DNA from: an uncultured delta proteobacterium
GTDB lineage: Bacteria; Desulfobacterota; Syntrophia; Syntrophales; UBA2192
Length of the DNA stretch: 64,000 nucleotides
Assembly (NCBI GenBank): GCA_963810965.1
Contig: CAWEPT010000005.1
Coordinates: 12,244-76,243, forward strand
Reading direction: 5' to 3'
The stretch's first letter is position 1. The number at the start of each line of letters is the position of its first letter. Positions 21,118 to 61,334 of the stretch are shown one piece after another. The notes beneath the pieces were generated by a model that saw nothing but the letters and a program-made list of their open reading frames with translations, had not been told where the DNA came from and did not search any database. A program made the position numbers and the translations under genes.

Positions 21118-21168
21118 CGGAATCAGCGTCTTTGCGTGACGGCAAGACAAACCGGGAGGAGATCCACC

Positions 21169-21834
21169 ATGAGTGACACGAGCACGATACAGTCGGCGGC
21201 AGGCGCGGCGACGACGACCACCACGACGGCCAGCACCAAAAATGTCATCGGCAAGGACGAGTTCCTGAAGATGCTCATCGCCCAGCTCAAGCACCAGGAC
21301 CCGATGAACCCCATGGACGGCACGGCCTTCACGGCGCAGCTGGCCCAGTTCTCCAGCCTGGAGCAGCTCCAGAACATCAATACCCAGCTGACCTCCTTCA
21401 CCAGGCAGCAGCAGTCGCTGGGCAACACGCAGGCCGTGAACCTCATCGGCAGGGAAGTCCTGGCAAAGGGCGACACGATCCAGGCCGAGGGAACGCCCGT
21501 CGACGCTGAGCTACCAGCTCAAGGGCGATGCCGCCACGGGCCTCGTCCGCATCTACAACGCCGACGGCGAGCTGGTCGATGCCCTTGTCTTCAAGAACCA
21601 GAAGCAGGGCATGAACACCCTGACGTGGAACTCCCCCGAGCTCCACCGTGGGCCGCTGCACCTTCGAGGTGAGCGCCGCTCGACAGCGCCGGCAAGTCCG
21701 TCGGCGTCGACGCCATGATCCAGGGCGAGGTGACGGGCGTGAACTTCCGCGACGGCGTGACCTACCTCAGCGTGGGCAGCCGGGAGATCGCCTTCAGCGA
21801 CGTCGTCTCCGTGAAAAAAACGAGCACGAATTAA
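21169..21834 (+). pseudogene. flgD: flagellar hook assembly protein FlgD, at least 3 frame breaks
   Basis: ATG 21169 after GGGAGGA. KDEFLKMLIAQLKHQDPMNPMD. Frames shift 1>2 (~21500), 2>0 (~21640) and 0>1 (~21680). The C-terminal GVNFRDGVTYLSVGSREIAFSDVVSVKK ends at TAA 21832-21834. Confidence 0.85.
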
Positions 21835-21874
21835 CACCGGGAACAAGACCGGGCAAACCAGGAGGATATGTGAG

Positions 21875-23418: not shown

Positions 23419-23644
23419 TCCAATCAGGCCGGGTTGCCCCCGGATTGCGGTAAGCCGCAGGCAAGGGGCAGCCCGGCGCTCTGTTCCGTACCGTCAAATT
23501 GTTGACCTGTTCAGGGCTGCTCCGCGCCCTCTCCGGATGCCTGATTGCGCCCGGATTGGCCGCTGGTTGCCGTCCCATCCCTTCGCACCCTTCTGCCGGC
23601 GGGCTCCGCCAGCCGGAATCTCTTGAAAATCCTTCTATTTCTGT

Positions 23645-23660
23645 TGGTATGGAATTTGCT
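23645..23660 (+). promoter_or_regulatory. sigma54 promoter candidate for fliL operon
   Basis: TGGTAT-ggaat-TTGCT with correct GG-N10-GC spacing, ~185 nt upstream of fliL. Confidence 0.55.
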
Positions 23661-23844
23661 CATATGCTGTGTGCACCCGCGGAGTCACCGCGGTCTGCCC
23701 CGGAAACCTGTCCGAAGGGACCGGCACGGGGCCGAACGGGTGCGGTGACCGGGGGCTCGAGACGGAACGACTCGAGCACGGCATGCGGCTCGCCTTCAAG
23801 GTGAGGCCCCAACAAGCAAAAACGAAGGAGTAAACCGGGGAGCC

Positions 23845-24345
23845 ATGGCCAAGGACGTGGAAAAAAACAAACCGGAAGAACAGTCTGCCGAGGGCGGCAA
23901 GGAAAAGAAGAAGGGCTCGAAGCTCAAGTGGATCATCATCGGCATCGTGGTTGTGCTGGTGCTGGGCGGCGGCGGTGCCGGTGCCTATTTCTTCCTGAAC
24001 AAGTCGGCCAGCAAGGAAGCCCAGGCCCCCCCTAAACCCCCGATCGGCGCCGTATGGGCCCCCGATGTGTTCATCATCAACCTGGCCGACGCCGATGCCG
24101 ACCGTTACCTCAAGGTCGTCATGAATTTCGAGCTCTCGGACCCGCTCGCCGTGGCCGAACTCGACGTGATGAAGCCCAAGGTCCGCGATATGGTCCTGAG
24201 CGTGCTCACCGTGAAGGGCATCAAGGACCTGAACAACTTCGAGGGCAAGCAGCGCCTCAAGGAAGAGATCGCGATGCGGCTCAACAATCACATGACGAAA
24301 GGCAAAGTCGTCCAGGTGTACTTTACGGACTTTGTCATCCAGTAA
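23845..24345 (+). CDS. fliL: flagellar basal body-associated protein FliL
   Basis: Lys-rich N-terminus, TM helix WIIIGIVVVLVLGGGGAGAYFF, ADRYLKVVMNFELSD...VYFTDFVIQ. Confidence 0.9.
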   Translation: MAKDVEKNKPEEQSAEGGKEKKKGSKLKWIIIGIVVVLVLGGGGAGAYFFLNKSASKEAQAPPKPPIGAVWAPDVFIINLADADADRYLKVVMNFELSDPLAVAELDVMKPKVRDMVLSVLTVKGIKDLNNFEGKQRLKEEIAMRLNNHMTKGKVVQVYFTDFVIQ

Positions 24346-29746: not shown

Positions 29747-31817
29747 ATGGCTGAAGCGGTACAGAGAGCACAGGCCCCGCCTCACTGGGCAGCAAACCCG
29801 GCAATGCTCATGGGCATCGGGGTCATCGGCGTCCTCATGGTCATGGTGATCCCCCTGCCGGCGCTGATCATCGACCTGCTGCTGTCGCTGAGCATCACGC
29901 TTTCCATCGTGATCCTGCTCATGTCCATGTTCGTCATGAAGCCGCTCGAATTTCTCCGCCTTTCCCTCCGTCCTTCTGACGGTGACCCTGTTCCGTCTTT
30001 CGCTCAACGTGGCCTCGTCGCGGCTCATCCTGCTCCACGGAAACGAGGGCACCGGGGCTGCCGGCCAGGTCATCAAGGCATTCGGGACCTTTGTCGTGGG
30101 GGGAAACTACGTGGTGGGGCTCATCGTCTTCGCAGTGCTCACCCTGATCAACTTCGTCGTCATCACCAAAGGCGCCACCCGCATCGCCGAGGTGGCGGCC
30201 CGCTTCACCCTCGACGCCATGCCGGGCAAGCAGATGAGCATCGACGCGGACCTCAATACCGGACTCATCTCCGAGGCCGATGCCCGGCGCCGGCGCGGCG
30301 AGATCGAGCGGGAAGCCGATTTCTACGGCGCCATGGACGGTGCCAGCAAATTCGTGCGCGGCGATGCCGTTGCCGGGATCATCATCATCTTCATCAATGT
30401 CGTCGGCGGCCTCATCGTCGGCGTGCTGCAGCAGGGCATGGACATCACCGATGCGGCCCGCAACTACACGCTGCTCACCATCGGTGACGGGCTCGTGACG
30501 CAGGTGCCGGCCCTGATCATCTCCACGGCCGCCGGCATGCTCGTGACGCGCTCCACCTCATCGTCCAATTTCGGACAGGACATCTCGGATCAGCTCTTCG
30601 CGCAGCCGAAGGTCATCGGCACGGCCGCCGCCATCCTCTTCATCTTTGCGCTGATCCCCGGGATGCCCAAGTTTTCTTTTTTCGTCATCGCCGCAGGGGC
30701 GGGCTTCCTGGCCTTCAGGCTCATGAAGGCGGCTGTGCCCGCCGAGGAGGCCGTGGAAGAGGAGGTAGCGCCGCCGTCGGCCATCGAGACGGTGGACTCG
30801 CTGCTGCCGCTCGATCTGCTGGAGATCGAGGTGGGCTACGGCCTCATCGGCCTCGTCGACATGGCCCAGGGGGGCGAATTGCTCCAGCGCATCAAGTCGC
30901 TGCGCAGGCAGCTGGCCCTGGAGATGGGATTTGTCATCCCGGCCATCCACATCCGGGACAATCTCCAGCTCAAGCCGAACCAGTATTCCGTCATCCTGAA
31001 GGGCGTTGAAATCTCCCGCGGCGAGCTGATGCCCGGGCACTGGCTGGCGCTCACGTCGGACAAGACCCCCAAGGTCAAGGGCATCGACACGAAAGAGCCC
31101 GCCTTCGGATTGCCGGCCGTGTGGATCTCGGAGAGGGAAAAGGAAAGCGTCCAGGCCCGCGGGGTGGTCGTCGTGGACCCCGCCACGGTGGCGACGACGC
31201 ATCTGACGGAGCTCATCAAGAGCCATTCCGACGAGCTGCTGGGGCGGCAGGAGGTCCAGTCGCTCATCGACAATCTCGGGAAGACCTACCCCAGGGTGGT
31301 CGAGGAACTGGTCCCGAAGGTGGTCTCCGCCGGGACGATCCACCGCGTGCTGCAGCGGCTGCTTCGCGAGCGGATCTCCATCCGCGACCTGCTGACGGTG
31401 CTGGAGACGCTGGCCGATTACGCGCCGCTCACGAAGAACATCGACATCCTGACGGGCTACGTGCGCCAGGCCCTGGCCCGGACCATCACGAAGCAGTACC
31501 GGGACGCCGAGGGCAACATTACCGTGGTGATGCTCTCGCCGGAGATCGAGGACAAGATCAGCCACTCCGTCCAGCACACGGAGTTCGAGTCCTACCTCAC
31601 GGTGGACCCGAACTGGGTGCAGAAGATCGTCCGCAGCGTCCAGAAGTACATCGGCGCCTTCACCTCGCGGGGCCTGCAGCCCATCGTGCTGTGCTCCCCG
31701 GGTGCCCGGATTCATTTCCGGAAGGTCCTGGAGAAATTTTTCCCGAACATCATCGTGCTCTCTCACAACGAAATCACGCACGATGTGAACATCAAATCAT
31801 TGGGGATCGTGGAGTAG
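29747..31817 (+). pseudogene. flhA: flagellar export apparatus protein FlhA, one frame break
   Basis: Fragments 29747..~29950 and 29982..31817. KPLEF|SAFPSVLLTVTLFRLSLNVASSRLILL is restored by removing one T from TTT at 29951-29953. Confidence 0.9.
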
Positions 31818-45589: not shown

Positions 45590-46973
45590 ATGTCCGGAAT
45601 CTACCAGATCCTGAATACGGCAAAGGACGCCTTTCTCGCCAGCCAGATCTCCATGGAGGTGACGGGCTCGAACATCGCCAACGCCTCGACGCCCGGCTAC
45701 GTCCGGCAGCGGGCCGTTCTCGCTGCGAAGAGCCCCGGCGAGGTCGCCGGGAACGCGACGCAGTCCGGTGTGGAGATCACGACCATCGAGCGGCTCTACG
45801 ACCGCTTTATCGAGTTCCAGATGGTCGATCAGTCCTCGCAGGTGGGCGATGCCTCGATCCGCAAGGAAACCTTCGACCGTATCGAGGCCATCTTCAACGA
45901 GACCGACGGGGGCGGCCTCAACGATCTGCTGAACCAGTTCTGGACGGCCTGGGAGGACCTGTCGGCAAACCCCACGGGCCAGGTGGAGCGGACGGCCCTG
46001 GCGAACGCCGCAGACAGCCTGGCCACGATGTTTCGCGAGTACGCGGGCGAGCTCTACAGCATCCAGACCGACCTGAACGTACAGATCGAGGCATCGGTTA
46101 CCCAGCTCAACGGCTACCTCTCCGACATCGCCGACCTGAACGACAAGATCGTCCAGGGGGTCAGCGGCGGCGTGAACGTCAACAACCTCCTGGACCAGCG
46201 CTCGGAGCTGCTCAAGAAAACGGCCGGACTCATCGATATCCAGTATGTGGAGGAAACGGGCGGAGCCGTCAACGTCTTCACGGCCGACGGCAGGGCCCTC
46301 GTCCAGGGGAACTCGTCCTGGCAGCTCGCTGTCCGGGACAACGGCGCGGGCCTCTACGACGTCGTGTACGCAGACAACCCGACCGTTCCCATCAACGATG
46401 CCATCGGCGGCGGGAAGCTCTCGGGGATGCTCGGCATGAGGGACACGACCGTGGCGGGCTACCTGGCCGAGCTCGACGATCTCGCCGGGACGCTGATCAA
46501 CACCGTGAACGCCCAGCACGCCTTGGGCTACGACAACTACCGGAACGTGGGCGGGAACTTCTTCGAGCCCCTCGGCTCCACGGGGGCCCGGGACATGCAG
46601 GTGGCCGCCGCCATCCTGGACGATCCGAATCGAATCGCCGCGGCGGCGACCGTCAATGCCGACGGCGACAACGCCCGGGCGATCATGCCTCATCAAGGAC
46701 CAGGGCCTCATGAGCGGCGGCCTGTCCACCCTGGGGGACTTCTACGCCGCGCTGGTGGGGCAGATCGGCCAGGACGTCGCCGAAGCGGGACGGACGGCGA
46801 CCCACGAGGCGAGCGTCATGACCCAGATGACGAACGCCCAGGAGCAGCGCTCCGGCGTATCCACCGACGAGGAGATGATGAACCTCATCAAGTTCCAGAT
46901 GGGCTATTCGGCGGCGGCCAAGCTGGCCAGCGCGGCCGACGAGATGCTCCAGTCCCTCCTGGAGCTGGTGTAA
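45590..46973 (+). pseudogene. flgK: hook-associated protein 1 FlgK, one frame break
   Basis: Fragments 45590..~46690 and 46656..46973. N-terminus ILNTAKDAFLASQISMEVTGSNIANASTPGY. C-terminus SGVSTDEEMMNLIKFQMGYSAAAKLASAADEMLQSLLELV is in the +1 frame. There is an extra base at CC 46688-46689. Confidence 0.88.
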
Positions 46974-47030
46974 CGACCACGCGCCCTCCGCCGGGCCACC
47001 CCTCGACGGCGGGCTGAAGAGGTGTCTTTC

Positions 47031-48736: not shown

Positions 48737-49564
48737 ATGGCAATCAGTGACATCTCTTTGACCGCAGGAATGCGGAGCAACCTCGTCAGCCTCCAGGGCA
48801 CCGTCGATCTTCTCAACCGCACCCAGGAAAGACTCGCCACCGGCAAGAGGGTGAACAGCCCCCTGGACAACGCGACCAACTACTTCGTCGCCAAATCCCA
48901 CATGGACCGCGCAGGCGACCTGAGCGTGCGCAAGGACGGCATGGGGGAGGCCATCCAGACGGTCAAGGCCGCCAACGCAGGCATCACCGCCATCACGGAC
49001 CTGATCGCGAGCGCCAAAGGTATCGCCCAGTCGGCCCTCTCGGCAGGGACCACAGAGGCGTCCACCCTGGCCGCGCAGTTCAATTCGATCCTGGACCAGA
49101 TTGACACTGTAGCCGCCGACTCCGGCTACAAGGGGACAAACCTCCTGTCCGCCACGGCGGCGGAGCGGACCCTCACCGTGAAATTCGACGAGTCCGGTGA
49201 CAGCTCGCTCACCATCACCGGCTCCGACGCCACGACATCGACGGGCCTGAGCATCGCCGATGCGGCGAGCAACTGGGCCACCGCCGCCAACATCAACACG
49301 GCCATCACCGCGCTCGACACGGCGCTGACGAACCTGAGAACGAGCGCCAAGACCCTGTCCTCCAACCTCAACATCATCACCACGCGAGATGCCTTCACGC
49401 AGTCGATGATCAACGTTCTCTCGGAGGGCGCCACGAAGCTCACGGCAGCCGACACCAACGAGGAGGGTGCCAACATGCTCATGCTCCAGGTCCGACAGTC
49501 CCTGGGCACGACGGCACTGAGCCTCTCCGCCCAGGCGGCGCAGTCTGTCCTGAGGTTGTTTTAG
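48737..49564 (+). CDS. fliC: flagellin (short, ~275 aa type)
   Basis: N-terminus LQGTVDLLNRTQERLATGKRVNSPLDNATNYF. C-terminus EEGANMLMLQVRQSLGTTALSLSAQAAQSVLRLF. Confidence 0.9.
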   Translation: MAISDISLTAGMRSNLVSLQGTVDLLNRTQERLATGKRVNSPLDNATNYFVAKSHMDRAGDLSVRKDGMGEAIQTVKAANAGITAITDLIASAKGIAQSALSAGTTEASTLAAQFNSILDQIDTVAADSGYKGTNLLSATAAERTLTVKFDESGDSSLTITGSDATTSTGLSIADAASNWATAANINTAITALDTALTNLRTSAKTLSSNLNIITTRDAFTQSMINVLSEGATKLTAADTNEEGANMLMLQVRQSLGTTALSLSAQAAQSVLRLF

Positions 49565-49697: not shown

Positions 49698-50576
49698 ATG
49701 GAAGGAATCAGAACAGCAATGGATCGGGCGCTGATCGCCGTCGAGCAGGCCAAGAGCCTCGATGGACACCGCGACGAAGCGGATCAGCACGGGCAAGAAA
49801 ATCAACGCCCCCGCCGACGACCCGGCCCGGTGGGCGGCTTCCCAGCAGGGACGCTCGATCGACGGGCATCTCCAGGCCGTCAACTCCGGCCTCGAGTCCG
49901 TCGCGATCAGCATCCGCGGCGCCGACAAAGCCATGGAGGCCATCGAAGAGCACATCGATCAGATGATCGAAACCGTAAAGTTCTTCCCGCCGTACCCCGA
50001 GGGGGACAATTCGGAAGAGCGGATCCGGATGCTCCGGAGCTTCAACGGGATCCGGCAGCTGATCGACCAGCTGACCATCCCGCCGAAGGACGACCTGGGG
50101 CAGGCGATCATGTCCGACCCCGCCACGAACCCGGAGGTGCCGGATTCGTGGCCGGTCATCGTCAATGAGCAGGGGGACGTCAAGACGATCGGGCGCCAGG
50201 AGGTCCACACGGGTCCCACGGGGCTCAACATCCCCGAGCATCACCGAGGCGGACATCACCGAGAACGGTCAGACCGGCGGCCCTCTGAGCCAGCAGAAGC
50301 TCGACGATATCGCGGCCAATCTCGAAAACGCCAAGGCCATCCTGAGGCAGCGCAGGGACGCCCTCGGCAGCGACGCGGCAGCCATCGGCCGGGCGAAGTC
50401 GTCCAATGAAAAGGCCGCCGCTTTTTACACAGTCCTACGCAGAGAACCTCGAGGCAGCCGACGTCAACGAGACGGCCGCGCAGGTGAAAAGCATCGAACT
50501 CAAACAATCCCTGGCCCTGGAGTCGCTGGGAAGCATCACCTCCCTGCGCTCGGAGCTGGTCGCGCTGCTGAAGTGA
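49698..50576 (+). pseudogene. divergent flagellin-family paralogue, 3 frame breaks
   Basis: Fragments 49698.., 49762.., 50165.., with the tail to TGA 50574-50576. Flagellin-N motif KRISTGKKINAPADDPARW and flagellin-C-like DVNETAAQVKSIELKQSLALESLGSITSL. Junctions at ~49761, ~50235 and ~50432. Confidence 0.65.
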
Positions 50577-50580
50577 TCCC

Positions 50581-50997
50581 ATGGCACTGAGAATCGAACT
50601 GAAGCCGCGCGAGCGGTTCATCCTGGGGGGCGCCGTTCTGCAGAACGGCGATGCGAGATCGGAATTGATCCTCGAGAACAACGTTCCGATCCTCAGGGGG
50701 AAGAATATCCTGAGCCTCGAGGAGGCCGACACCCCCTGCAAGCGCATCTATTTCCTCATTCAGCTCATGTACGTGGAAGGCGGCAATCTCGCGGGGCATC
50801 AGGACACCTACTGGGCCCTGGTCCGCGACATCGTCGAGGCGGCGCCCAGCATGCTCGGCCTCATCGACGCCATCAACGAACACCTCGTCGGCGGCCGTTA
50901 CTACGAGGCCCTCAAGCTGACCCGGAAACTCATCAACGAAGAGGAGAGGTTAATCCAACATGCAGACTCAGGTGCAGGCTTACCAGAACACCCATAA
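50581..50997 (+). CDS. flbT: flagellin synthesis repressor FlbT
   Basis: MALRIELKPRERFILGGAVLQNGDARSELILENNVPILRGKNIL...TPCKRIYFLIQLMYV closely parallels Caulobacter FlbT. Confidence 0.85.
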   Translation: MALRIELKPRERFILGGAVLQNGDARSELILENNVPILRGKNILSLEEADTPCKRIYFLIQLMYVEGGNLAGHQDTYWALVRDIVEAAPSMLGLIDAINEHLVGGRYYEALKLTRKLINEEERLIQHADSGAGLPEHP

Positions 50998-51346
50998 GAT
51001 GGTGATGTCGGATCGTGAAGTGGAGGCGGCGGTCCTCACGAAGGGGGCGCTGATGCTCCGCAACTGCCAGGAGAACTGGACGAGCGGCGGAAACAACGGC
51101 ATGCTCGACGAGGCCCTCCGGTACAACCAGCTCGTCTGGAGCATCTTCCAGGGGGAGATCACCCGGAAGGACCACCCGATGCCTGTGGAGCTGCGGCAGA
51201 AGATCCTGACGCTCAGCCGGTTCATCGACCGGCGCATCTTCGAGGTCATGGCCTATCCCCACTCCGGAAAGCTCAACGCCATCATCAATATCAACCTCAA
51301 CCTGGCCGCCGGACTGAGAGGGTCGTCCGGGGTCGAGGAGGACTGA
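50960..51346 (+). CDS. flaF: flagellar biosynthesis regulator FlaF
   Basis: QAYQNT...DEALRYNQLVWSIFQGEI...PVELRQKILTLSRFIDRRIFEVM matches the FlaF pattern. Overlaps the flbT 3' end. Confidence 0.8.
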   Translation: MQTQVQAYQNTHKMVMSDREVEAAVLTKGALMLRNCQENWTSGGNNGMLDEALRYNQLVWSIFQGEITRKDHPMPVELRQKILTLSRFIDRRIFEVMAYPHSGKLNAIININLNLAAGLRGSSGVEED

Positions 51347-51376
51347 GAAAAAGTCTGCACGATGGAGAGCAAAAAC

Positions 51377-51409
51377 AAGGGCGGCCGACGCTTCAGTCAG
51401 GCCGCCCTT
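51377..51409. terminator. bidirectional rho-independent terminator between convergent operons
   Basis: AAGGGCGGCC / GGCCGCCCTT stem, with an A-run upstream and a T-rich tract downstream. Confidence 0.7.
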
Positions 51410-51415: not shown

Positions 51416-54073
51416 TTATCGCCTCAAATTCATCGTTGCACCGAACAGCCGCTCCCCTGCCGGCTCCGGTCCGGCGATGGCGGGGTCGGGCCGCAGGCGG
51501 TCCGGGGCTGCCAATCCAGCAGGATCAGCAGTTGATCCGCCTGGTCTTTTTTCCCTGCCTTCCGCAGCTTCTCGATGACGGGAAGGATCTGGGAACGAGG
51601 CTCGAGTCCCGTCTCGTGAAGCCGCTGCAGGTACTCGGTGCTCCTTCCCGCGTGACCGGCCAGTGCGAAGCAAATGGCAAGAAGGCTCAGGGCAGGGGGA
51701 TAGTCCGGTTCCTTTTTTAAGAGTTTTTTCCGCCATCCTGATGGCCTTGCGGAGATCGCCTGCGAAGAATTCCGCGGCGGCGCAGTTCAGCAGGAGCTCC
51801 CTCGTTCCGTTCGCCTGACCGGCGGCCTTCCGGGCTTCCACGAGCGCCTCGTCGAAGCGATCCGCATTCAGGCAGGCATTGATGAGGTTCACGTAGGCCC
51901 GGCTCACATCCTGTGCCGGCTTGCCGTCGAGATATCTCCTCCACAGCCTGATCGCGTCGTCGTATCGGCCCAGTTCGCCTGCCTGGATCGCAAGCTCCAG
52001 GATCGCCCGGGGGGTGCCGCCCGATTCCTCGATCTTTTTCAGCCCGAGCAGATAGTAGCGCTCCCCCTTCTCGAGAACGCTCGCCCGGTCGAGCTTGCCC
52101 GTGTGATGGACCGGTACGTCGCATGCGGCGATTTTCATGCCCGCCTCGAGCATCGACGGCTCGACAAGCTCGTGCACGGCGCCGGAGAAACGGATCCGGG
52201 GGTCGTTCCGGAAAAGCCGCACCTTGCGGTTGGGGTACCAGCCCGTTCCGGCCTCTTCGTCGCGGTAGGAGCCGTCATTGGCCACCCACCCTGCGGTGTT
52301 TGCCTCGACCACGTAGTTCCGCGTGGTGAGATCATAGCCGCCGGTGCCTTCCGGGCTCTTTCGGATGAGGGCCCTGAGCCTTTCATGATCCCGGGACGAA
52401 ACGGTCTCGTCGGCGTCGATGACCAGGATCCAGTCGCCTGTCGCCTTGGACAGGGAGAAATTTCTCGCGCTGGAGAAATCCTCGTCCCAGGCGAAATCGA
52501 AGACCTTTGCCCCGAAGACGCCGCGATGTCCTTCGTGCGGTCCGTCGAGCCCGTGTCGACGACGATGATCTCGTCGACGGCGGCCTTGACGCTCGAGAGG
52601 CACCGGACGAGGTTGGGCTGCTCGTTTTTGACGATCATGCAGAGGGAAAGGGTTTCCCCTTTTGCTTTTTTCTTGATTTCCAGGGGACCGATTTTGTCTC
52701 GCACTTCCAGGGCGGCGGCGATGAACCCGTCGTCCACGTCGAAAGCTGCCATGGCGGCCTCGATCTCCTCCATCGCCGTCGGCGTGGTTTTCCTGCGAGA
52801 TGAGCAGATCGATCAGGAGGAAGGCGATGCGTGCGGCTTGACGGGTAGAGGCCCGGGCTTCGCGGAAGACGTTCTCCGCGCGGGCGAAGGCTCCGAGCGA
52901 CATCGCCGCCGCGTGATACCGGTCGGCAAGATCCACCACATGGGGCGAGAGGATGAATCCTTTTTCCAGGAGGTCGAAGGATTCGTCCCGCTCACCGGCC
53001 GTCCAGAGCAGGACGCCCAGGTTCGTCAGGGGTTCTCCCCAGGATGGATCGGCCTCGGCCGCCTTCTCGAAGTATTCTCTCGCCTGCTCTGCGGCGTTTT
53101 GCCTGAAGGCAAGGATGCCCTTGAGATTCAGCGCGGGGGCATGGACCTCGTTCATGGAAAGGGCCAGATCGGCAAGATTCCCGGCCTCCTCCAGCTCGTT
53201 CAGGCCCTCCCTGCACTGTCCTTCCAGCACCAGCCTGTCCGCGTCCCCGGATGCGACGGGGCATTGCCGGAGGGCATCGAGGGCATCCCCGTGTCGTCCT
53301 GACTGAATCAGCATTTGCGCAAGCTCGGTATAGTTGCGCTTGTCCTGGGGATCTTGCTGGATCGCGGAGAGGTACAGGTCTACCGCTCCCTTCACGTCAC
53401 CCCGCTGAGAGCTCTTCCAGGCCTGCTCCCGGGCCACGAGAGCCCGGATCTTCCGCCCCTCATGGGGCTTCTGCTCGATGTCACGCCACTTGTCATTGTA
53501 AATTTTTCGATTTCCCGTGAGGGAAGAGCCGTAGTCGATGCGGTTTCCGATGAAGCTGCGGCTCCCGAAGTGGTGGATGAAGACATCGCCTGCGATCACA
53601 TTCCGATAGCCTGCAAGGGCCGCTCTCGCGCAGAAGTCGTCGTCCTCGAAGTTCCCCGTGCCGAAGCTCTCGTCGAGCAGGCCGATCTGATCCACAAGAC
53701 TGCGCCTGAAGAGCATGCAGAAGCCAACGACCCGCCTGGTCTTCTGTGCGCCGATGACGGTTTTTCTCCCTGAAGGATCGGGCATAGCTTTCGAGGCCCT
53801 CGATGGCATCGTAGCCGACCCTGTCCACCTTCTGGACGGCCGCTGATGTTGTTTGTCATGGGTCCGACGATTCCGATATCGGGGCGTGCTTTTCAGGCAT
53901 TCCAGCATGCCCGAGAGCCACTTTTCGGTCACGACGACATCGTTGTTGAGAAGGAGGATATCGTTGCCCGTGGCGGCCTCGATGCCTTGGTTGCAGCCTT
54001 TCGCGAAGCCGAGGTTCTTGCCGTTTTCGATGAGTTTGTAGCTGGGTTCTCCTTGACGAGCTCTTTCAGCCAT
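51416..54073 (-). pseudogene. glycosyltransferase/TPR segment (GT2 C-part, TPR, GT2, TPR), several frame breaks
   Basis: GT2 motifs LLNNDVVV...EDDDFCARA, and LSLCMIVKNEQPNLVRCL..IIVVDTGSTDRT (in track ORF 52135..52773) joined to VIDADE. Garbage stretches at ~53600-53900, ~52500-52800 and ~51710 show frame hops. TPR repeats lie between the GT domains and at the end. Confidence 0.7.
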
Positions 54074-57000
54074 TTGACGGTTCCGTCCTTGGACCCGTTG
54101 TCGACGAAGATGATCTCATGGGGCTCCGGCGTGTGCCTCCGGATGCTCTCGACGCACTTCTTCGTGTACTCGAGCTCGTTGAACGTGAGGATGACGATGG
54201 ACGTGAGAGCGCGTTCCGGACGATCCGGTAAGGAGTTCGACTGATCCTTGGGCTCACGAGACTCGCGAATATCGAGCAACCGATCGTATACCCGGGCATA
54301 ATCTTCGATATTCTCTTCCATCGTCTTGAGGCGGGAATCCCGAAGGTTTGCTGCGACCCTTTCGAGCCGCGTTGGATCGTCCAGAATTTCCAGGAGCCTA
54401 GCCGCGAGGGCCTTGGCGTTTCCGGGAGGGACGAGAAATCCGGTCTCGCCGTCGACGATTCTCTCGCTGATTGCTCCGCAATCGGAAGCGATGACGGGGA
54501 TGCCCATCATCTGCGATTCGCTTGCGGTCAGGCAGAATGTCTCGTCCCATACGGACGGAATCATGACCAGGTGTGTCTTGGACAGCAGTCGCGGAAGATC
54601 GCTGCGTTCATAGAATCCGTGCTGGATGATGCCGAGTTCATTTGCTGTTTTCGTCAGTGAGGGGGGCACGCCGCCGAAAATCTCGAGTCGTATGGGCTTT
54701 CCCTTGAGAATCTTCGCCGCTTGCAGAAGAACGAAAACGCCTTTTCTGTCGCTTGCATTTCCGAGGAAACCCACCCTGAGAACGTTTCCGCGTTTCGCCT
54801 GCTGGCTCTTCTGCAGGGGTTCGATCCCGTGGGGAACGGTGACGATCCTGTCTTTTATCTCCTCTCCATGGGCCTGGATGAACCGTTCGCGCACAAAATC
54901 AGACGGGGCGACCAGGATGTCCGCCGCTTCGATGACGCGCTTGATAATTTGCTTTCGTTCGGCTAAGTAATCCCGCAGTAGCGACGGTTTGCCGGCCCCG
55001 TGATATTTGCGCTTTGTGCCGAGACAATACAGGCATTCGGCGTCTTCGCCGTCCGCAATGGTTTTCCCGCAGCGCCTCAGGTTCGGGAGGATCAAATTGT
55101 AATCGGGGCAGAGCAGGTAGTAATCGTGAAGAGAAATCAAGACCTTGAGGCCTTGATCCTTTGCGATGAGCGGCAGGAGCATGGAGCTCCAGCCGCCGAG
55201 ATGCTGGAAGTGAACGATTGAGGGACGACAGCCCCGCAGGAAGTTCGAAAAGATGGTTTCTACGTACTCGTTTGTCAAGTCTCCGTATATCTCGAGGAAG
55301 GAGTCGGTTACCACGACGGTCTCCTTGCGCAGCTTCAAGACGCGGAGATATCCGTTTACTTCCTTAGCCGCAAGATCGACCCACTGCTCGGGCAGGGATG
55401 CCGGGAACAAAACCGTGCTGTGAAACCGTGAAGACAGACCATCAATAATGTTTCGCGTGTGCAGTTCGGTGCCCCCCGGAGCATCAAAATTGTGAAGGAC
55501 GTGAAGCACGCCCGGCAAAAGAGGGTTTTCGAGCTCTTTGACTTTCCTGAAAATCCGTTCCTGGATCTCCCTTAAAGGATTGATGCAACAGAACCTGTAT
55601 ATTTCTTCCTTGTAGTTCGGCCATTTCTGTTCGAGCAGGCGCTCATTCAATTTGCGTTTTTCGCTGATCCGCGTGATGCTGCCGAAGGAAGCCTCCCCGT
55701 AGTGGTGAACATAGGCGTCGTCACAGCAGACGATCTTTTTCCCGGCATCCCGGGCGCGCATGCAGAAATCATTCTCCTCCCCGTAACCGAGGCCGAATGC
55801 GGGATCAAATGCGCCGGCGTTGTGCAGCGTGTCCCTCGAGATCAACATGCAGAATCCTACGCCGGTCGGGATCTCCGGGTAGGTTCTGCGCGACACCTCT
55901 GCGATCAGGGAACCGAAGCGATTCGTGTCTATCCCCTCCGGGAGAGTATTTGACTGGTTCATGACAGGGACGGAAAGAATCGTCGCATTGTTCGAAAGGG
56001 GGCACACGATGCCGATGTCCGGATGGCTGTTGAGGCAGCGGTGCATTCTGTCGAGCCAACCCTTTGTAACCTCCGTGTCGGAATTGAGAATGACGACGTC
56101 ATTTTCAGACAGTTCGAAACCGCGATTGACGTTGTGGACGAATCCTTTGTTTACGGAGGATTCGATCAGGCGGACCCTTGGATCTGCTTTCTCGAATGAT
56201 TTGAGTAGCGGCAGAACGCGGGAATCCGTGCTGCTGTCATCAAGCAGGTAGATGGCATGGTTGCCCTGCGTGTGGCGGAGAACACTGTCGATGCACCGCT
56301 GGAGATGCTCGAAAGCATTGAAGATCGGGATCAGAATGTCGCAGGACCTGTCAGGCGGGGCGACGTAATCCCCCGAAGCGTTGTTGGTCTTCGAACGCAT
56401 CGCGATCGATTTTATCCGGGAGGAAAGGAACGCGTCCACGCGATCCCTGATCTCTCGATCCGATCCCCCGGTCGGACTGCTGTTCCCTGATCGAGACGCA
56501 TCAGCACGGGAAACGTGCCGGGTTGTGTCGAACGTGCCGGACCCTTCATCTGTCAAGGGCCGAGGGGTGCACGTTGGAATCGATGCATCTTCTGCGGCTG
56601 CTTCAGGATTGGAAGGCGATGATTGTTCCTCTGCCATGCGCTGCAGAACCGAGAGGTTCTCTTCGGCTTGGGCATGACCTGGTGCGATGGACAGCACCCT
56701 GCCGTAGAAGAATCGCGCGTGGTCGAACTGTTTTTGCGTGGAGCAGATGTTTCCGATCCGAAGAAGCGTATCAACGTCATCCGGCTCGAGAGTGAGAGCC
56801 TTGTTGTAGTGGTTGAGCGCACGTTCGATGTCTCCTGTCTCCGCAAGGTACGCGTCGGCGAGGTCTCTGACGAAACGCAATACATCGGGCTGGAGTTGAA
56901 CGGCCCTATCAAGATGGAACAAGGCCTTTTCGATTTCTTTTTCCAGGCAATAAAGGTTCCCCAAATCGTTGTGAGCCCGGGCCTCTTCTGGATGGAGATC

Positions 57001-57174
57001 GAAGCAGGGTCTCGAGATTCTCGATTGCCCTGTCTGTCCGGCCGCGTCGCGCCAGAGACCTGGCCACTCGAACCAAGGCCTCGGGGTCGCGTTTATCCGA
57101 CACCTTTCCCTGCTCCTCCAAAGCGTCGAACATCTTTGCGGCGAGTTCATTCGCAGAATCGATTTCGAGGACAC
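53929..57174 (-). CDS. TPR - GT2 - GT4 - GT2(N-part) multidomain glycosyltransferase segment
   Basis: GT2 CDILIPIFNAFEHLQRCIDSVL..LLDDSSTD..ILNSDTEV. GT4 FLGNASDRKGV..IPSVWDETFCLTASESQMMGIPVIASDCGAISERIVDGETGFLV. Second GT2 start TSIVILTFNELEYTKKCVESI..FVDNGSKDGT. Both ends continue into the neighbouring track ORFs after a frame shift. Confidence 0.8.
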   Translation of the reverse strand: MSSKSILRMNSPQRCSTLWRSRERCRINATPRPWFEWPGLWRDAAGQTGQSRISRPCFDLHPEEARAHNDLGNLYCLEKEIEKALFHLDRAVQLQPDVLRFVRDLADAYLAETGDIERALNHYNKALTLEPDDVDTLLRIGNICSTQKQFDHARFFYGRVLSIAPGHAQAEENLSVLQRMAEEQSSPSNPEAAAEDASIPTCTPRPLTDEGSGTFDTTRHVSRADASRSGNSSPTGGSDREIRDRVDAFLSSRIKSIAMRSKTNNASGDYVAPPDRSCDILIPIFNAFEHLQRCIDSVLRHTQGNHAIYLLDDSSTDSRVLPLLKSFEKADPRVRLIESSVNKGFVHNVNRGFELSENDVVILNSDTEVTKGWLDRMHRCLNSHPDIGIVCPLSNNATILSVPVMNQSNTLPEGIDTNRFGSLIAEVSRRTYPEIPTGVGFCMLISRDTLHNAGAFDPAFGLGYGEENDFCMRARDAGKKIVCCDDAYVHHYGEASFGSITRISEKRKLNERLLEQKWPNYKEEIYRFCCINPLREIQERIFRKVKELENPLLPGVLHVLHNFDAPGGTELHTRNIIDGLSSRFHSTVLFPASLPEQWVDLAAKEVNGYLRVLKLRKETVVVTDSFLEIYGDLTNEYVETIFSNFLRGCRPSIVHFQHLGGWSSMLLPLIAKDQGLKVLISLHDYYLLCPDYNLILPNLRRCGKTIADGEDAECLYCLGTKRKYHGAGKPSLLRDYLAERKQIIKRVIEAADILVAPSDFVRERFIQAHGEEIKDRIVTVPHGIEPLQKSQQAKRGNVLRVGFLGNASDRKGVFVLLQAAKILKGKPIRLEIFGGVPPSLTKTANELGIIQHGFYERSDLPRLLSKTHLVMIPSVWDETFCLTASESQMMGIPVIASDCGAISERIVDGETGFLVPPGNAKALAARLLEILDDPTRLERVAANLRDSRLKTMEENIEDYARVYDRLLDIRESREPKDQSNSLPDRPERALTSIVILTFNELEYTKKCVESIRRHTPEPHEIIFVDNGSKDGTVKWLKELVKENPATNSSKTARTSASRKAATKASRPPRATISSFSTTMSS

Positions 57175-58279
57175 TCAGGTAACACTCGTGTGCCTTGGTG
57201 AAGTCTCCGGATTCTACCCGAATATTTCCTAAGGTCAGGAGGGTCTCCGTGTCCTGGGGATTGATCGACAGGGCCCGTTCATAATGTCGCACTGCCTCTT
57301 CGGGCCGTTTCATTGCCACGTAGCAGAAATCGGCCAGGTTTTTCCGGAACGTTGCATTTTCGGGATCGAGGGAAACGGACTTTTCGCAGGCGGCCAAGGC
57401 TTTCTCGGCGTTTCCCTGCTTGCCGTAGAGGACCCCGAGGTCATTGTATGCGGGGGCATAGTCCGGGAAAGACTCCACCAGCCGTTCGAGAGCGAAAGCG
57501 GCCTCTGCACGCTTTCCCTCGGTGACGAACAGTTTGATGATGCTCTCATGGGGCTCGACTGCTGGATGACTCTCGTGTGCGGATCGTGATTCCTGTGCCT
57601 CTGTGCAAATCTTGCCAGCGTCGTGATATTCTTTGCCCCGTTCAGCAACAATGGCATATGCCTCTTTCATTTTCTGCTGTTGTCCGGATGTCATCGTTGA
57701 GCCATCCTGACGCCAGGATACTGAACATGTCACAAGGGGAATATGCGCAAACTGGAAAATGCGGGACATTCGCATCCAAAGATCCCAATCTTCCAGTGAT
57801 TGAAGCGTCTCGTCAAAAAGACCCACGTTATCCAGACAGCTTCTTCTGTGCATGACGCACAGGACAGGAATAAAGTTTTCTCTCAAAATTCGCTCGTAAT
57901 CGAATTCAAACGAATAGGGCACTTCCTTCTTTATCGTGACGTATTTTCCATTTCGCATTTCCTGATATGTGCGATGAGCGTCGGTATAGGCAACTTGGTA
58001 TTCGGTCGATTCCAGGAAATTGACAAGGGTTTCGAGATGGTCGGGATAAAAAAGGTCGTCATCATCCAGATATGCAATATATTTTCCGCGCGCCGCCTTG
58101 ATCCCCTTATTGCGCGCCGCCGGAAGTCCCCGGTTGGTGTCGTGTTGCAGGCATCTAATGTTGTCGTTAGTGAGCCCCTCGAAGAGTTGACGAACGTCTG
58201 ATCCACCGTCGTTGATAACGATGACTTCATAGTATTGATAGGTCTGGCCAAAAATGCTTTTCAGGGCATTCATGAGCAT
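56909..58279 (-). CDS. GT2 - TPR segment (continuous with 53929..57174 after a frame shift)
   Basis: MLMNALKSIFGQTYQYYEVIVINDGGSD...YLDDDDLFYPDHLE, then TPR repeats. The N-terminal IVPTYNRPD is in the adjoining frame. Confidence 0.8.
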   Translation of the reverse strand: MLMNALKSIFGQTYQYYEVIVINDGGSDVRQLFEGLTNDNIRCLQHDTNRGLPAARNKGIKAARGKYIAYLDDDDLFYPDHLETLVNFLESTEYQVAYTDAHRTYQEMRNGKYVTIKKEVPYSFEFDYERILRENFIPVLCVMHRRSCLDNVGLFDETLQSLEDWDLWMRMSRIFQFAHIPLVTCSVSWRQDGSTMTSGQQQKMKEAYAIVAERGKEYHDAGKICTEAQESRSAHESHPAVEPHESIIKLFVTEGKRAEAAFALERLVESFPDYAPAYNDLGVLYGKQGNAEKALAACEKSVSLDPENATFRKNLADFCYVAMKRPEEAVRHYERALSINPQDTETLLTLGNIRVESGDFTKAHECYLSVLEIDSANELAAKMFDALEEQGKVSDKRDPEALVRVARSLARRGRTDRAIENLETLLRSPSRRGPGSQRFGEPLLPGKRNRKGLVPS

Positions 58280-59030
58280 ATCAGGACGGTTGTAGGTCGG
58301 GACAATAAGGAGACAAGTGGATTTTCACCGGAAATCGAGTATTTTTTCTGCGCTCTTTGTGCGGCAAGGGCACGCATGGCGTAATGCCGCTGTTCCGTTC
58401 CCTTCTTGCTGGAAATTGAGCATGGGCGTGATCTCCAATAGACGAGAGGCTCTCCTATGTTTGCAAGTTTGAATTTTTCAGACATTCTGAGAAACAGGTC
58501 ATAATCATGGCTGTAGTGATATCCTCGTCATACCCGCTAAGCGCCTCCAAAGCATCTTTCCGAATCATTACGGTGCTGTGGCCAAACCAGTTCTGGTCCA
58601 ATAATCGTTCCTGGATGGCATCACTGTCCGTTAGGACGTCGACGATCCGTTGAACTTCATGTATCGTCGATTTCGTGATAGGAGCTACCGACAAGAGCCA
58701 ATCCGGATGCGTTCAAGGATTCGAGATCTGTTTCAAGACGATGGGGCAGGGAAACGTCATCGGCATCCATAATCGCGATGTAGGTGCCCCGTCGCAGCTG
58801 CAGGGCTTTGTTTCGCGACTCCGGCGGGTCCAGAATTCTCGGGGTTCGTGAAAATCTTGATTCTCGGATCGTCAGCAGGCTGAGGATCCGGCGGTTTCAT
58901 CCGTTGACGCGTCATCAACGACGAGCAGTCGAAATTCGGGTACGTCTGTTTCAGGATGCTATGAATGGCTTCTTGAGAGAGGAAGCTCCGCATTGTGCGC
59001 AGCCATGATCACGCTGACAGCCGGGGATTC
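58270..59030 (-). pseudogene. GT2 glycosyltransferase segment, multiple frame breaks
   Basis: VSVIMAAHNAE, SQEAIHSILKQTYPNF, DDPRIKIFTNPENSGPA, GTYIAIMDADD and MIRKDALEALSGYDEDI are found in three different frames. No stop separates it from the next GT2. Confidence 0.6.
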
Positions 59031-59039
59031 CGGATGAAA

Positions 59040-60269
59040 GGGGATGGCGGCGTCCCAGGAATTCTGGTAATAACTTCCGCACCCTGGCATTGTGTCCTTT
59101 CAGGTAAACCAATCCACGATCATCGATGAATTCGTATAAATTCACGGTCGATGACATGCCGATAGAGTTTGCTGCTTGGAATGCCCACGAAAACGTTCTG
59201 CCAGGTCATGGTGGGCTTGATTTCCGAAAGGAGGGCGTCCGTTGCGGCGAGGTCTTCTTCGGTCTCCTGAGGGAGGCCGACCACGATACTGGCGGCGGTC
59301 TTGAAGCCGATTTCGTTGCAGAGCCTGAAGCTTGTTCTGATCTGGTCGACGGTGATCCCTTTGTGGAGTTCATCCAGGATTCTCTGAGAGCCGCTTTCAA
59401 CGCCGAAGTAAAATCCTCGAGCACCTGCCTTGTGCATCAGCTCGAGGAGTTCCCTGTCGAGGCTGTCGACACGGGACTCGCAGGCCCAACGGATATCGAT
59501 GTGTCTCTCCATCAGAAGCTTGCAGAATTCGACCACCCGCTTCCGATCAAGCGTGAAGTTGTCCTCGCGGAAGTAGATGCCTTTTGCCCCGTAGCGTTCG
59601 ACGAGATGCTCAATGTCGGAGACGATTCGCGCGGCACTGAAGCTCGTGTATTGTTTCCCCAGACTGCGCCGACGGAGCAAAACGCACAGCGGAAGGGACA
59701 GCCTCGGCTTGTCGTCATCGTGAACGTGGGCTTTTCGGGAAACCACAGCGCCTCCCAGTTATACGGGAGTTTCGTAAAGAGGTCCCAGGCCGGCATGGGG
59801 AGAGCGTCGAGGTCACGGATACGGGGGTATCGAACGACACGATCCTTGACCTTCCCTTCCACGATGTCGACGATCGCCTGTTCGCCCTCGCCTTGGACGA
59901 CGTGGTCGACGAAAGCCGGAATGGTGTCGAGGGCAACCGTGGTGTGCGGTCCCCCCACAATAATTTTCCCGTGCCATTGACCGCAACGCCTCAGATGTTC
60001 GATCTTATAGAGCATCCGTTGAGTGTCGCGAAAACAGATCGTGCTGACATAGATGCCGACATAATCGATACCGTTTGCCTGCAGATAACCCGATTCGAGA
60101 AAATTGCTGGGCCCCAGATAATTGTCGATGAAAAACACGTCATGCCCTGCTTTCTGAGCATCGAAAGAAGGAAACCGACGCCGAGCGGAGGTTTCTTTTC
60201 CCAGGTCGAAAAGGGGGTTTGCGAAGGAGCCGCAGACGTAACGAGGAGCACTCTTTTGCTGACTTTCAT
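59040..60269 (-). pseudogene. B12-binding radical SAM enzyme, at least 3 frame breaks (3' end uncertain)
   Basis: ATG 60269 (MKVSKRVLLVTSA...). B12-binding-like N-domain. TSRGCPFRCAFCSV cluster motif. Continues as ..QYTSFSAARIVSDIEHLVERYGAKGIYFREDNF in another frame (missing base in a G-run at ~59665). Confidence 0.75.
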
Positions 60270-60608
60270 TGGGCTATTATCCTTGGCTTTACAATGTGTT
60301 AGAAGAGTCACACCCATGCCCGCCATGAAGGTCCCGCATTCCGGCACTGCGACTTCGCTGAAGCGATTTCAGAAACGCAGAACATCCGCCGACTAGGGTA
60401 AACGTCCGATATTTTGCACGTTATGTGCCAGCGGGGGCGCTGCGAGTGAGCCTGCCCGTAGGGCTGCTCCCTGCAGTCTGCCATGGCGAAGGAACTGGCG
60501 GATCAGACGCTGCCTGCATATGCGAGGGCGTGAGGGTGTAAGGATATCCGCCGTGCATCCGCAAAGACGGATGGGCAGCAGAGCATCAGGTTGCAGATCG
60601 ATCGTTTG

Positions 60609-61334
60609 TCAGCTTGCCTGGAGGTGATTCAGGAGGGTCTGGGCCTCGGTGAAGGCGGGGTTGATCTTCAGGGCCTTTTGGATGGATTCGACGGCCGGTT
60701 TCTTTTCTTTTTTCGCAGCATAGGCCCGGGCGAGGTTGTAGAGGATGCCTTCGTCGTCGGGGGCGACGGAGAGGGCCTTTTTGAGCTCCGTGACGGCCTT
60801 GTCGAAGTTCCCGTCCTTGCGGGCCTGGATGCCCAGGGCGTTGTAGGTCTGGAGGATGAAGCCCAGGAGGTCCTCGTTCGTGCCGATGAGGGCCCGGGCC
60901 TTTTCGTGCTCCCCCTTGTCGATGAGCCGCATGATCATGAGGGCCCGGTTTTCCTGGGTTTCTTCCCCGCCGGCGAGGTTCCGGGCGATCTCCTCCTCGG
61001 AGACGCTGACGAGCTGCCGGACGAAAGAGAGCGTCGTCTCGTTTTCGTTCTCCTGGAACGTGACGGGGCCGAAGGTGTTCTTGAAGGCGGTGCTCGCCAT
61101 GAGCTGCCGCTGAAAATCGTTGATGCCTTCCTGAAGGTCTTTCTCGTCCTGGGGAAGCATGCGGGTGACGACCATCCTCTCCATGGCGTCCTTGAAGCCG
61201 GTGAGGCAGGAGTAGACGTTTCCCTGGGCGAGAAACTTCCGGCAGTTTGCCAGGGTTCTCGAAATCTCGGATGCCCGTTCTCTGACGATGGCTTCGTCCA
61301 TGCCGATTGAGGGTGCTGTGTGAAGGGTTTCCAT
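60609..61334 (-). CDS. TPR-repeat protein
   Basis: C-terminal TPRs (YNALGIQARKDGNFDKAVTELKKALSVAPDDEGILYNLARAYAAKKEKKPAVESIQKALKINP). Confidence 0.7.
   Translation of the reverse strand: METLHTAPSIGMDEAIVRERASEISRTLANCRKFLAQGNVYSCLTGFKDAMERMVVTRMLPQDEKDLQEGINDFQRQLMASTAFKNTFGPVTFQENENETTLSFVRQLVSVSEEEIARNLAGGEETQENRALMIMRLIDKGEHEKARALIGTNEDLLGFILQTYNALGIQARKDGNFDKAVTELKKALSVAPDDEGILYNLARAYAAKKEKKPAVESIQKALKINPAFTEAQTLLNHLQAS

Follow-up and report, generated by a model that had tools for sequence, protein, structure and literature searches.

As judged from intact homologues, positions 60269–51430 on the minus strand of the window, a 64,000-nucleotide (nt) stretch of contig CAWEPT010000005.1 (GenBank assembly GCA_963810965.1) from an uncultured delta proteobacterium of the Syntrophales, are a single gene that includes a radical S-adenosylmethionine (SAM) domain. 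The gene faces a convergent group of flagellin, flbT, and flaF, and its product would be a soluble, cytoplasmic megaenzyme of ~2,945 amino acids (aa) in which the radical SAM domain is joined to six glycosyltransferase (GT) domains of the GT2 and GT4 types and to three blocks of tetratricopeptide repeats (TPR). Taken jointly, we regard it as probable that the gene is single, that its family represents a flagellin glycosylation locus, and that the frame breaks in the available sequence are most likely errors.

As written, the minus strand from 60347 to 51416 is a chain of at least 10 separate, partly overlapping open reading frames (ORFs) of 118, 208, 208, 68, 78, 79, 71, 456, 1081, and 885 aa, and in three-frame translation the recognisable protein sense jumps between frames. 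Pfam gave no matches on the raw frame-0 translation of the region; the domains appeared only after the frames had been stitched by eye, which gave a GT/TPR protein of 2560 aa and a radical SAM protein of 406 aa. A plot of G+C at third codon positions (GC3) by frame and a codon-usage hidden Markov model were too noisy to tell frameshifts from gene boundaries and served as pointers only. The gene structure was determined by frameshift-tolerant protein-to-DNA alignment against intact homologues. Specifically, the closest relative (L081), whose flanking flagellar genes share ~94% DNA identity with those of the window and whose gene order is identical, carries at the same position a single intact ORF of 4015 aa (P0121). 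This protein begins with MKVSRRVLLVTSAAPSQTPF, matching the radical SAM start of the window at 60269, runs without a stop from the radical SAM domain through GT2 domains 1 and 2 into TPR block A, and ends with GSGCSVQR and a stop codon, as does the window at 51433. Its residues 1–1093 aligned with 60269–57002 at 82% aa identity with 14 one-base frame changes and zero stops, and its residues 3100–4015 aligned with 54183–51433 at 91% aa identity with 9 frame changes and zero stops. The junction within TPR block A near 56995 is bridged by another intact homologue (P0083) with one frame change, and three further members (P0009, P0006, and P0008) are collinear over the junction of the 1081- and 885-aa ORFs. 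A similar alignment to P0138 (score 268, with a spurious stop) was discarded for its low identity and long gaps.

The start of the giant gene is the ATG at 60269–60267 and the stop is the TGA at 51432–51430; both ends are shared with P0121. The earlier note on this DNA, made from the sequence alone, had placed the end at 51416, but the stop there is out of frame, and it is the frame of the TGA at 51432–51430 that matches the homologue terminus GCSVQR. The same note had taken the radical SAM enzyme as a separate partner gene. With the frame change near 59073 taken into account, no stop lies between the radical SAM domain and the first GT2 domain, and the radical SAM module is the N-terminal domain of the same protein, fused in intact relatives; P0133, an intact member from a Syntrophales metagenome-assembled genome, is an independent case of the radical SAM–GT2 fusion. 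Because the intact homologues show one ORF, with P0121 sharing the start, the fusion, and the stop, the region is read as a single gene of ~2,945 codons once 13 inserted bases are removed and 11 deleted bases are restored. The single reading frame suggested earlier is thus borne out by collinearity with intact P0121, P0083, P0009, and P0006, although the sequence as written needs 24 corrections to yield it. The multi-GT fusion as such is independent of any frame correction, because the longest intact ORF (53929–57174, 1081 aa) already spans TPR, GT2, GT4, and the beginning of the next GT2.

The domain order GT2, GT2, TPR, GT2, GT4, GT2, TPR, GT2, TPR on the minus strand and the upstream radical SAM motif CPFRCAFC had both been proposed in the earlier note, and Pfam on the stitched protein recovered this order with the radical SAM module at the N terminus (Radical_SAM, E 1e-23; B12-binding, 38 bits) (Table 1). 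Glycos_transf_2 matched five times (E 3e-25, 1e-32, 3e-19, 6e-31, and 4e-23), while Glyco_transf_4 and Glycos_transf_1 matched once, together constituting the GT4 domain. As read from the sequence, acidic catalytic-type motifs are kept in all GT domains and the CxxxCxxC motif is kept in the radical SAM domain. No module of the stitched protein matched MAF_flag10/DUF115 (PF01973) in Pfam. The protein has no 19-residue stretch with a mean hydropathy above 1.42 and no membrane-like segment, which is consistent with cytoplasmic modification of flagellin before export.

Table 1 Features of the giant gene and its surroundings in the window.
Feature	Position	Strand	Evidence or remark
Giant fusion gene	51430–60269	−	~2,945 aa; radical SAM, five GT2, one GT4, three TPR blocks
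Ribosome-binding site AAGGA	60280–60284	−	10 nt 5′ of the ATG; read from sequence
B12-binding-type (Rossmann-like) domain of radical SAM module	59863–60191	−	Pfam PF02310, aa 27–136; 38 bits, marginally above cut-off of 32.1
Radical SAM core	59237–59715	−	Pfam PF04055, E 1.3e-23; CxxxCxxC = CPFRCAFC at 59700–59677
GT2 domain 1 (VSVIMAAHNAE ... IMDADD)	58404–59024	−	Pfam PF00535, E 3e-25
GT2 domain 2 (IVPTYNRPDML ... YLDDDD)	57690–58312	−	Pfam PF00535, E 1.3e-32
TPR block A	56659–57568	−	Pfam TPR_1 and TPR_2, E about 1e-45
GT2 domain 3 (CDILIPIFNAFEHL)	55678–56343	−	Pfam PF00535, E 2.6e-19; in strain-specific cassette and in 1081-aa ORF
GT4 (GT-B fold) domain	54337–55479	−	Pfam PF13439, PF00534, PF13692; ExxxxxxxE = ETFCLTASE; in cassette
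GT2 domain 5 (TSIVILTFNELEY ... EDDDF)	53555–54204	−	Pfam PF00535, E 5.9e-31
TPR block B	52958–53404	−	Pfam TPR_2, TPR_16, TPR_19
GT2 domain 6, GmaR-like (LSLCMIVKNEQ ... VIDADE)	52064–52650	−	Candidate protein-directed (flagellin) transferase
TPR block C (C-terminal end of protein)	51592–51976	−	Pfam TPR_19 and TPR_14; matches consensus-TPR PDB entries
14 frame changes in 60269–58308	near 60152, 59652, 59143, 59073, 58976, 58930, 58889, 58872, 58819, 58659, 58523, 58359, 58328, 58308	−	
Frame change in TPR block A	near 56995	−	Single one in this block
9 frame changes in 54042–51727	near 54042, 53884, 53838, 53741, 52852, 52829, 52780, 52521, 51727	−	
Terminator-like GC-rich hairpin and U run	51372–51408	−	Between the convergent stops of giant gene and flaF
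flbT and flaF	50581–51346	+	flbT 50581–50997, flaF 50960–51346; Pfam FlbT E 1e-41, FlaF E 2e-27; convergent on giant gene
Divergent flagellin-like gene	49700–50580	+	Broken by +1 nt at 49755, 50239, 50431; blastn/tblastn vs L081
Flagellin	48737–49564	+	275 aa, intact, probable acceptor; Pfam Flagellin_N and Flagellin_C
Small TPR-only protein	60609–61334	−	Pfam TPR; just upstream of giant gene

The best match of GT2 domain 6 in the Protein Data Bank (PDB) is the GT domain of GmaR (22ao_A; E 2.2e-33, 119 bits), with IDADE aligned on IDADE and hence the DxD motifs superimposed. The next match is SunS, the SunS/ThuS entries 7msp and 7msn scoring E about 4e-13, and the best NCBIfam hit is the SunS family TIGR04195 at 61 bits against a cut-off of 350. 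The TPR_19 and TPR_14 matches lie within the 190 aa C-terminal of this domain. The other GT domains resemble glycan-extending enzymes, namely PglI, chondroitin and heparosan synthases, PglA, MshA, and PimA. In particular, GT2 domains 1, 2, and 5 match chondroitin and heparosan synthases in the PDB, the nearest solved structure to domain 2 is PglI (9jma), and the nearest to the GT4 domain are PglA, MshA, and PimA. GT2 domains 2 and 5 are 95% and 92% identical to P0121 (aa 3093–3351 for domain 5). Domain 1, where G+C is lowest within the locus and 8 of the frame changes lie, shares 65% identity with P0121 aa 400–645. The nearest solved structure to the radical SAM module is AprD4 (6fd2, E 8.8e-26), aligned over both domains. 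No NCBIfam family reached its cut-off for this module; the best scores (methyltransferase, BchE, HpnJ, AprD4, and others) were 100–147 bits against cut-offs of 360–750, and the AprD4 family gave 122 bits against 500.

The nature of the frame breaks was examined by comparison with the relative. Alignment to P0121 and P0083 placed 24 one-base frame changes between 60269 and 51433, of which 13 are insertions and 11 are deletions. All in-gene frameshifting differences from L081 are of exactly one base, while intergenic indels range from 1 to 20 nt. Read codon by codon in the frame of the relative, ~1,930 aligned codons contain no nonsense codon. As 3.6% of random base changes in the giant-gene sequence would create stops, the probability of finding none is ≤0.013 if at least five neutral substitutions accompanied each indel. 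The ratio of nonsynonymous to synonymous substitution rates (dN/dS) is 0.06–0.24 in the four homologous parts of the giant gene and 0.08–0.46 in the neighbouring flagellar and chemotaxis genes.

The locus is, as the earlier note stated, the most frame-broken part of the window, but other flagellar genes are broken as well. FliF is split into ORFs at 12080–13132 and 13114–13737 (plus strand), with the YscJ_FliF_C profile cut at positions 78/93, which implies a frameshift near 13.1 kb. Frame breaks also affect FlgD and FlgE, the hook protein (21100–23420, plus strand); the N- and C-terminal motifs of FlgE lie in different frames, and about six frame hops occur in its variable middle between 22.48 and 22.99 kb. 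The ORF of FlhA (29795–31817, plus strand) starts at position 51 of the FHIPEP profile; its first 50 residues seem to be encoded in a different frame, the switch falling near 29969. In FlgK (45590–47017, plus strand), one additional nt at 46687 relative to L081 shifts the last ~110 codons, so that FlgK as written lacks the Flg_bbr_C domain present in that of the relative. In the public assembly of another locus (L082), a 274-aa flagellin and flgK are likewise called as fragments (138 + 106 aa at 20675–21500 and 87 + 180 aa at 23263–24065), indicating that frame errors in flagellar genes also arise in a comparable metagenome assembly.

The 24 breaks are most likely one-base consensus errors of the assembly rather than inactivating mutations, because all are ±1 nt, nonsense codons are absent, dN/dS is like that of the neighbours, and essential flagellar genes are also broken. 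An old pseudogene was rejected on the dN/dS values and the zero nonsense codons, and phase variation or programmed frameshifting was rejected because the sites are too many and do not lie at repeats or homopolymers. The numerous ORFs at the locus would then be an artefact of one-base errors, and automated gene calling will break up genes of this kind wherever assembly quality is similar. The earlier suggestion that the locus is “inactive or highly variable” is retained in its latter half, as the middle cassette (54.2–57.1 kb) is replaced in the closest relative; inactivity is unlikely, the breaks having the look of errors.

The neighbourhoods of ten family members were read; two contigs (L083 and L088) end right after the gene, which leaves eight with a readable downstream flank. 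The giant gene abuts flagellar genes in seven of these eight loci. A convergent flaF–flbT–(flagellin-like)–flagellin arrangement is found in six, comprising L081, L082, L084 (Syntrophales), L085, L087, and L089, and in L090 the giant gene is followed by fliD–flhA–flhB. L085 is the locus of the isolate Geomonas edaphica (GCA_004917075.1), which has an intact copy (P0175) with about 35% protein identity. The earlier note had proposed such a comparison of gene content among relatives as a check and had noted the convergence of flagellin, flbT, and flaF on the GT/TPR region; Pfam identified Flagellin, FlbT, and FlaF there. Directly upstream of the giant gene in L082, L083, L085, and L087 lie nucleotide-sugar genes, encoding DegT-type aminotransferases, epimerases/dehydratases, C-methyltransferases, nucleotidyltransferases, and further radical SAM enzymes. 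A functional tie of the giant gene to flagellin, as postulated in the earlier note, is supported at the level of comparative sequence analysis, because the flagellar neighbourhood is kept in seven of the eight loci and the terminal GT2 and TPR modules are homologous to GmaR.

The enzyme most likely adds a complex sugar chain to the flagellar filament, to judge from these neighbours and modules. We infer the following scheme. The TPR blocks would hold unfolded or pre-export flagellin, and the GmaR-like GT2–TPR module would add the first sugar to Ser/Thr residues. The remaining GT2 and GT4 modules could lengthen this sugar into an oligosaccharide, and the N-terminal radical SAM domain may tailor a sugar, either through C-methylation or through a deoxygenation like that of AprD4. 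Strains that swap internal GT cassettes would thereby change their glycan.

Several observations weigh against the combined reading. The frame breaks are patchy, with none in the 2.95-kb cassette (54043–56994) and 8 within ~420 nt of GT2 domain 1, and only about 2 of 13 well-placed breaks fall in homopolymer runs, a pattern that a simple error model leaves unexplained. Every broken gene seen in the window is flagellar, and a real loss of motility is possible. The function of the giant protein is inferred from the gene neighbourhood and the homology of one of its six GT domains. The B12 dependence of the radical SAM domain is putative; AprD4, the nearest solved relative, has a Rossmann-like domain yet binds no cobalamin (PMC12931638). 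Nucleotide-sugar biosynthesis genes were seen neither in the scanned ORFs of the window nor near the L081 gene. The Nitrospira locus (L086) is the sole exception among the eight, with no flagellar neighbour in the part read.

Three alternatives were considered. If the breaks were real, the lineage would be losing or would have lost motility, and the giant gene would be a recent pseudogene along with fliF, flgD/E, flhA, flgK, and the flagellin-like gene. Such a scenario could account for the confinement of breaks to flagellar genes and their position mostly outside homopolymers, for a share of breaks in the giant gene far above its share of length, and for the dN/dS of its C-terminal part (0.24), which falls towards the top of the neighbours' range. 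We nevertheless consider it unlikely. Natural gene decay produces mixed indel lengths with a deletion bias, whereas all 24 events here are ±1 nt and insertions roughly equal deletions in number. The absence of nonsense codons, at the probability given above, and dN/dS values indistinguishable from those of intact neighbours argue in the same direction. Clusters of one break per 50–100 nt adjoin the 2.95-kb break-free stretch, the whole window is flagellar and hence provides no control for the statement that only flagellar genes are hit, and flgK and flagellin are likewise called in pieces in L082, a comparable public assembly. That the region instead consists of separate genes, one for a radical SAM enzyme and others for GT and TPR proteins, whose own starts and stops are masked by poor sequence, is hardly credible. 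The ORF listing does give separate ORFs, and radical SAM enzymes stand as separate genes in L083, L087, and L089, but the closest relative and at least eight other members carry the same modules in one unbroken ORF, and the largest intact ORF of the window already covers four modules. Separate genes had been named in the earlier note as the outcome that would overturn the single-frame reading; no genuine stop between modules was found in the frameshift-tolerant alignment to intact homologues, which needs zero stops throughout.

The remaining alternative concerns the acceptor. The enzyme could, for instance, build or modify a polysaccharide of the cell surface, a glycan on S-layer or pilin proteins, or a glycoconjugate for secretion, with the adjacency to flagellin being historical. 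Five of the six GT domains do resemble generic glycan-extending enzymes (PglI, chondroitin/heparosan synthase, PglA, and PimA), one family member was named “O-antigen biosynthesis protein” by the Joint Genome Institute (JGI), and the Nitrospira member stands apart from flagellar genes in the part read. Against this, the flagellar neighbourhood persists in seven of the eight readable loci down to about 35% protein identity, the GmaR-like module is present, and the protein is without a membrane segment. Moreover, neither the window nor the loci read contain export or polymerisation genes (wzx/wzy, wzm/wzt), whether for a flippase, a polymerase, an ABC exporter, or an undecaprenyl-phosphate priming transferase. 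We therefore judge a non-flagellin acceptor improbable and favour flagellin as the substrate.

Comparison with characterised systems places the giant protein nearest to GmaR. In Listeria monocytogenes, GmaR is a bifunctional flagellin O-GlcNAc (N-acetylglucosamine) transferase and MogR anti-repressor whose GT domain precedes its TPR; it modifies flagellin in the cytoplasm, and its gene lies among flagellar genes (PMC9638930). GT2 domain 6 is homologous to the N-terminal GT-A catalytic domain of GmaR, and TPR lies directly C-terminal in both proteins. GmaR, however, has 637 aa, one GT, and a C-terminal anti-repressor, and transfers one GlcNAc, whereas the GmaR-like unit here is the last of ten modules in ~2,945 aa, which also include a radical SAM domain and five other GT domains. 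TPR block C forms the C-terminal end of the giant protein; the match to GmaR was confined to its 204-aa GT-domain chain, and no similarity at E ≤ 0.01 was found to its TPR, linker, or MogR-binding anti-repressor region.

The earlier note had taken FlmG as its model, but the closest characterised relative is GmaR (GT2 then TPR) and not FlmG (TPR then GT-B). FlmG of Caulobacter crescentus is a 596-aa flagellin O-glycosyltransferase with N-terminal TPR and a C-terminal GT-B-type domain that transfers pseudaminic acid; its TPR binds flagellins, and the system includes FlbT and FlaF and has short (~275-aa) flagellins (PMC7591256). The window shares the combination of TPR and GT and the directly adjacent FlbT, FlaF, and 275-aa flagellin. 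Unlike in FlmG, each TPR block follows a GT2 (GT-A) domain, with blocks A and B also preceding a GT2 and block C being terminal, and the sole GT-B domain (GT4) follows a GT2 rather than TPR. Another difference is that no nonulosonic-acid genes were seen: none for pseudaminic or legionaminic acid biosynthesis was present among the scanned ORFs of the 64-kb window, which is part of the genome only. No FlmG-like gene was found in the window either. The Geomonas locus L085 is the only one with a TPR–GT41 gene beside the giant gene: a 631-aa TPR–Glyco_transf_41 (OGT-like) protein is encoded at 17114–19009, between the giant gene and flaF, and is a candidate second flagellin transferase of the FlmG/OGT style.

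Other relationships are more distant. GT2 domain 6 is related to the GT2 domain of the S-glycosyltransferases SunS and ThuS, GT-A enzymes that act on proteins or peptides and have a helical C-terminal region; these are single-module enzymes whose acceptor is a Cys of a bacteriocin, and the domain is far below their family cut-off. Tandem GT domains in one polypeptide are shared with the chondroitin polymerase K4CP, heparosan synthase, and GT2–GT4 proteins of ~730 aa. Multi-domain polysaccharide GTs, however, contain two GT domains, in rare cases three, and their products are polymers or lipid-linked glycans, whereas the giant gene is without export or polymerisation genes, its product has no membrane anchor, and its neighbourhood is flagellar. 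With AprD4, the sugar diol-dehydratase of apramycin biosynthesis, and other class-B radical SAM enzymes, the N-terminal module shares a B12-binding domain and a CxxxCxxC core, but here it is fused to GTs and scores below every family cut-off. The combination of GT2 and TPR has already been used as a marker for picking flagellin glycosyltransferases (PMC13317340). On these analogies, the giant protein would work in the manner of GmaR- and FlmG-type cytoplasmic flagellin O-glycosylation while belonging to neither in the strict sense, because it has no anti-repressor, an order opposite to and a fold different from FlmG, and no Maf domain.

Searches with the stitched protein revealed a large family of 1,500–4,200-aa proteins with many GT2/GT4 and TPR modules and often a radical SAM domain; at least 120 clusters score at least 687 bits (P0121–P0239 family). 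A search of genome contigs found no near-identical genome, the best match being 50% identical. In a module map of 20 family members, the backbone consists of an optional radical SAM–GT2 domain 1 unit, GT2 domain 2, a variable middle, and GT2 domain 5–TPR block B–GT2 domain 6–TPR block C. This backbone lies in one ORF of more than 1,500 aa in 17 of the 20 members, with identities to the window modules of 40–95%, and P0138 lacks only GT2 domain 6 and TPR block C of it. The family, which in Desulfobacterota-type bacteria stands next to flagellin genes, appears to be uncharacterised as a whole, and full-text searches of the literature on flagellin glycosylation found no description of megaenzymes that combine radical SAM, multiple GT, and TPR.

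The variable middle is where the window and its closest relative part. Homology to L081 ends inside TPR block A (about 57002–57117) and resumes just before GT2 domain 5 (about 54183–54201). Between these points (54.2–57.1 kb), the window has a GT2–GT4 cassette, whereas in L081 different modules fill about 2,000 aa (~6 kb), WbsX-type and GT9-type domains among them. The cassette of GT2 domain 3 and GT4 is homologous to a very widespread stand-alone two-domain protein of ~730 aa, and P0138 carries this cassette at the same place inside one ORF. G+C is 0.48–0.57 in the N-terminal part and the cassette and 0.60–0.66 in the flanks. Hypervariable flagellin glycosylation islands are known elsewhere (PMC5109656, PMC13317340); the giant gene shows the same behaviour, but within one ORF.

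Around the giant gene, the hairpin between the convergent stops has a predicted folding energy of −32 kcal/mol (z −3.4), a stability that none of 200 shuffled sequences matched; a simple terminator scan did not pick it up, presumably owing to its long loop. The intact flagellin has a dN/dS of 0.46 relative to the relative's copy, the top value among the neighbours. The flagellin-like gene between flagellin and flbT encodes 291 aa in L081, L082, and L084, with a Flagellin_N match in the L081 copy; the counterparts in L085, L087, and L089 (197–249 aa) have no Pfam match. Given its conserved place by flbT, one may speculate that it is a regulatory flagellin like FljJ of Caulobacter. The small TPR-only protein upstream has counterparts in L081 and L082, with 85% identity to the 231-aa one in L081, and could serve the giant protein as a partner or adaptor. 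Further away, positions 1–45000 of the window hold an almost complete flagellar regulon with two sigma-54 activators, FliF/G/H/I/J, FlgD/E, FliM, FliR, FlhB/A/F/G, FliA, FliL, FlgF/G/A/H/I/J/M/N/K/L, and a 774-aa SPOR–TPR protein. Flagellar proteins of the window share 60–75% identity, as well as synteny, with those of a named metagenome-assembled genome, which would by itself point to a probable Syntrophales-like member of the Desulfobacterota. An 8-nt tandem duplication, GATTCAGC GATTCAGC, at 63116 (plus strand) lies in the 3′ end of a helix-turn-helix (HTH)/response-regulator gene and is absent from L081.

Flagellin glycosylation usually relies on one protein-directed transferase (GmaR, FlmG, or Maf) together with separate sugar-pathway and extension enzymes. 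In the locus described here, one polypeptide of 3,000–4,000 aa combines a putative GmaR-like initiating module with five other transferases, three putative substrate-binding repeat arrays, and a candidate tailoring domain of the radical SAM type, and this arrangement is conserved beside flagellin genes across Syntrophales-like and Geobacter-like bacteria. A tentative extension, which we put forward with considerable reserve, is that the protein might act as a template-like glycan assembly line in which flagellin is held on the TPR arrays and the O-glycan is handed from GT module to GT module, with the radical SAM domain acting in cis. Were this true, the order and identity of the modules would specify the glycan as a counterpart of the module logic of nonribosomal peptide synthetases and polyketide synthases (NRPS/PKS), and recombination that swaps cassettes, as between the window and the relative with 94% identity, would remodel the flagellar surface in a single event. 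If the proposed role in flagellin glycosylation holds, the family would offer a tractable system for studying a multi-sugar protein glycan made without a lipid carrier, with an intact copy available in the isolate Geomonas edaphica, as well as a case of surface diversification through domain-cassette exchange and a new context for sugar-modifying radical SAM chemistry.

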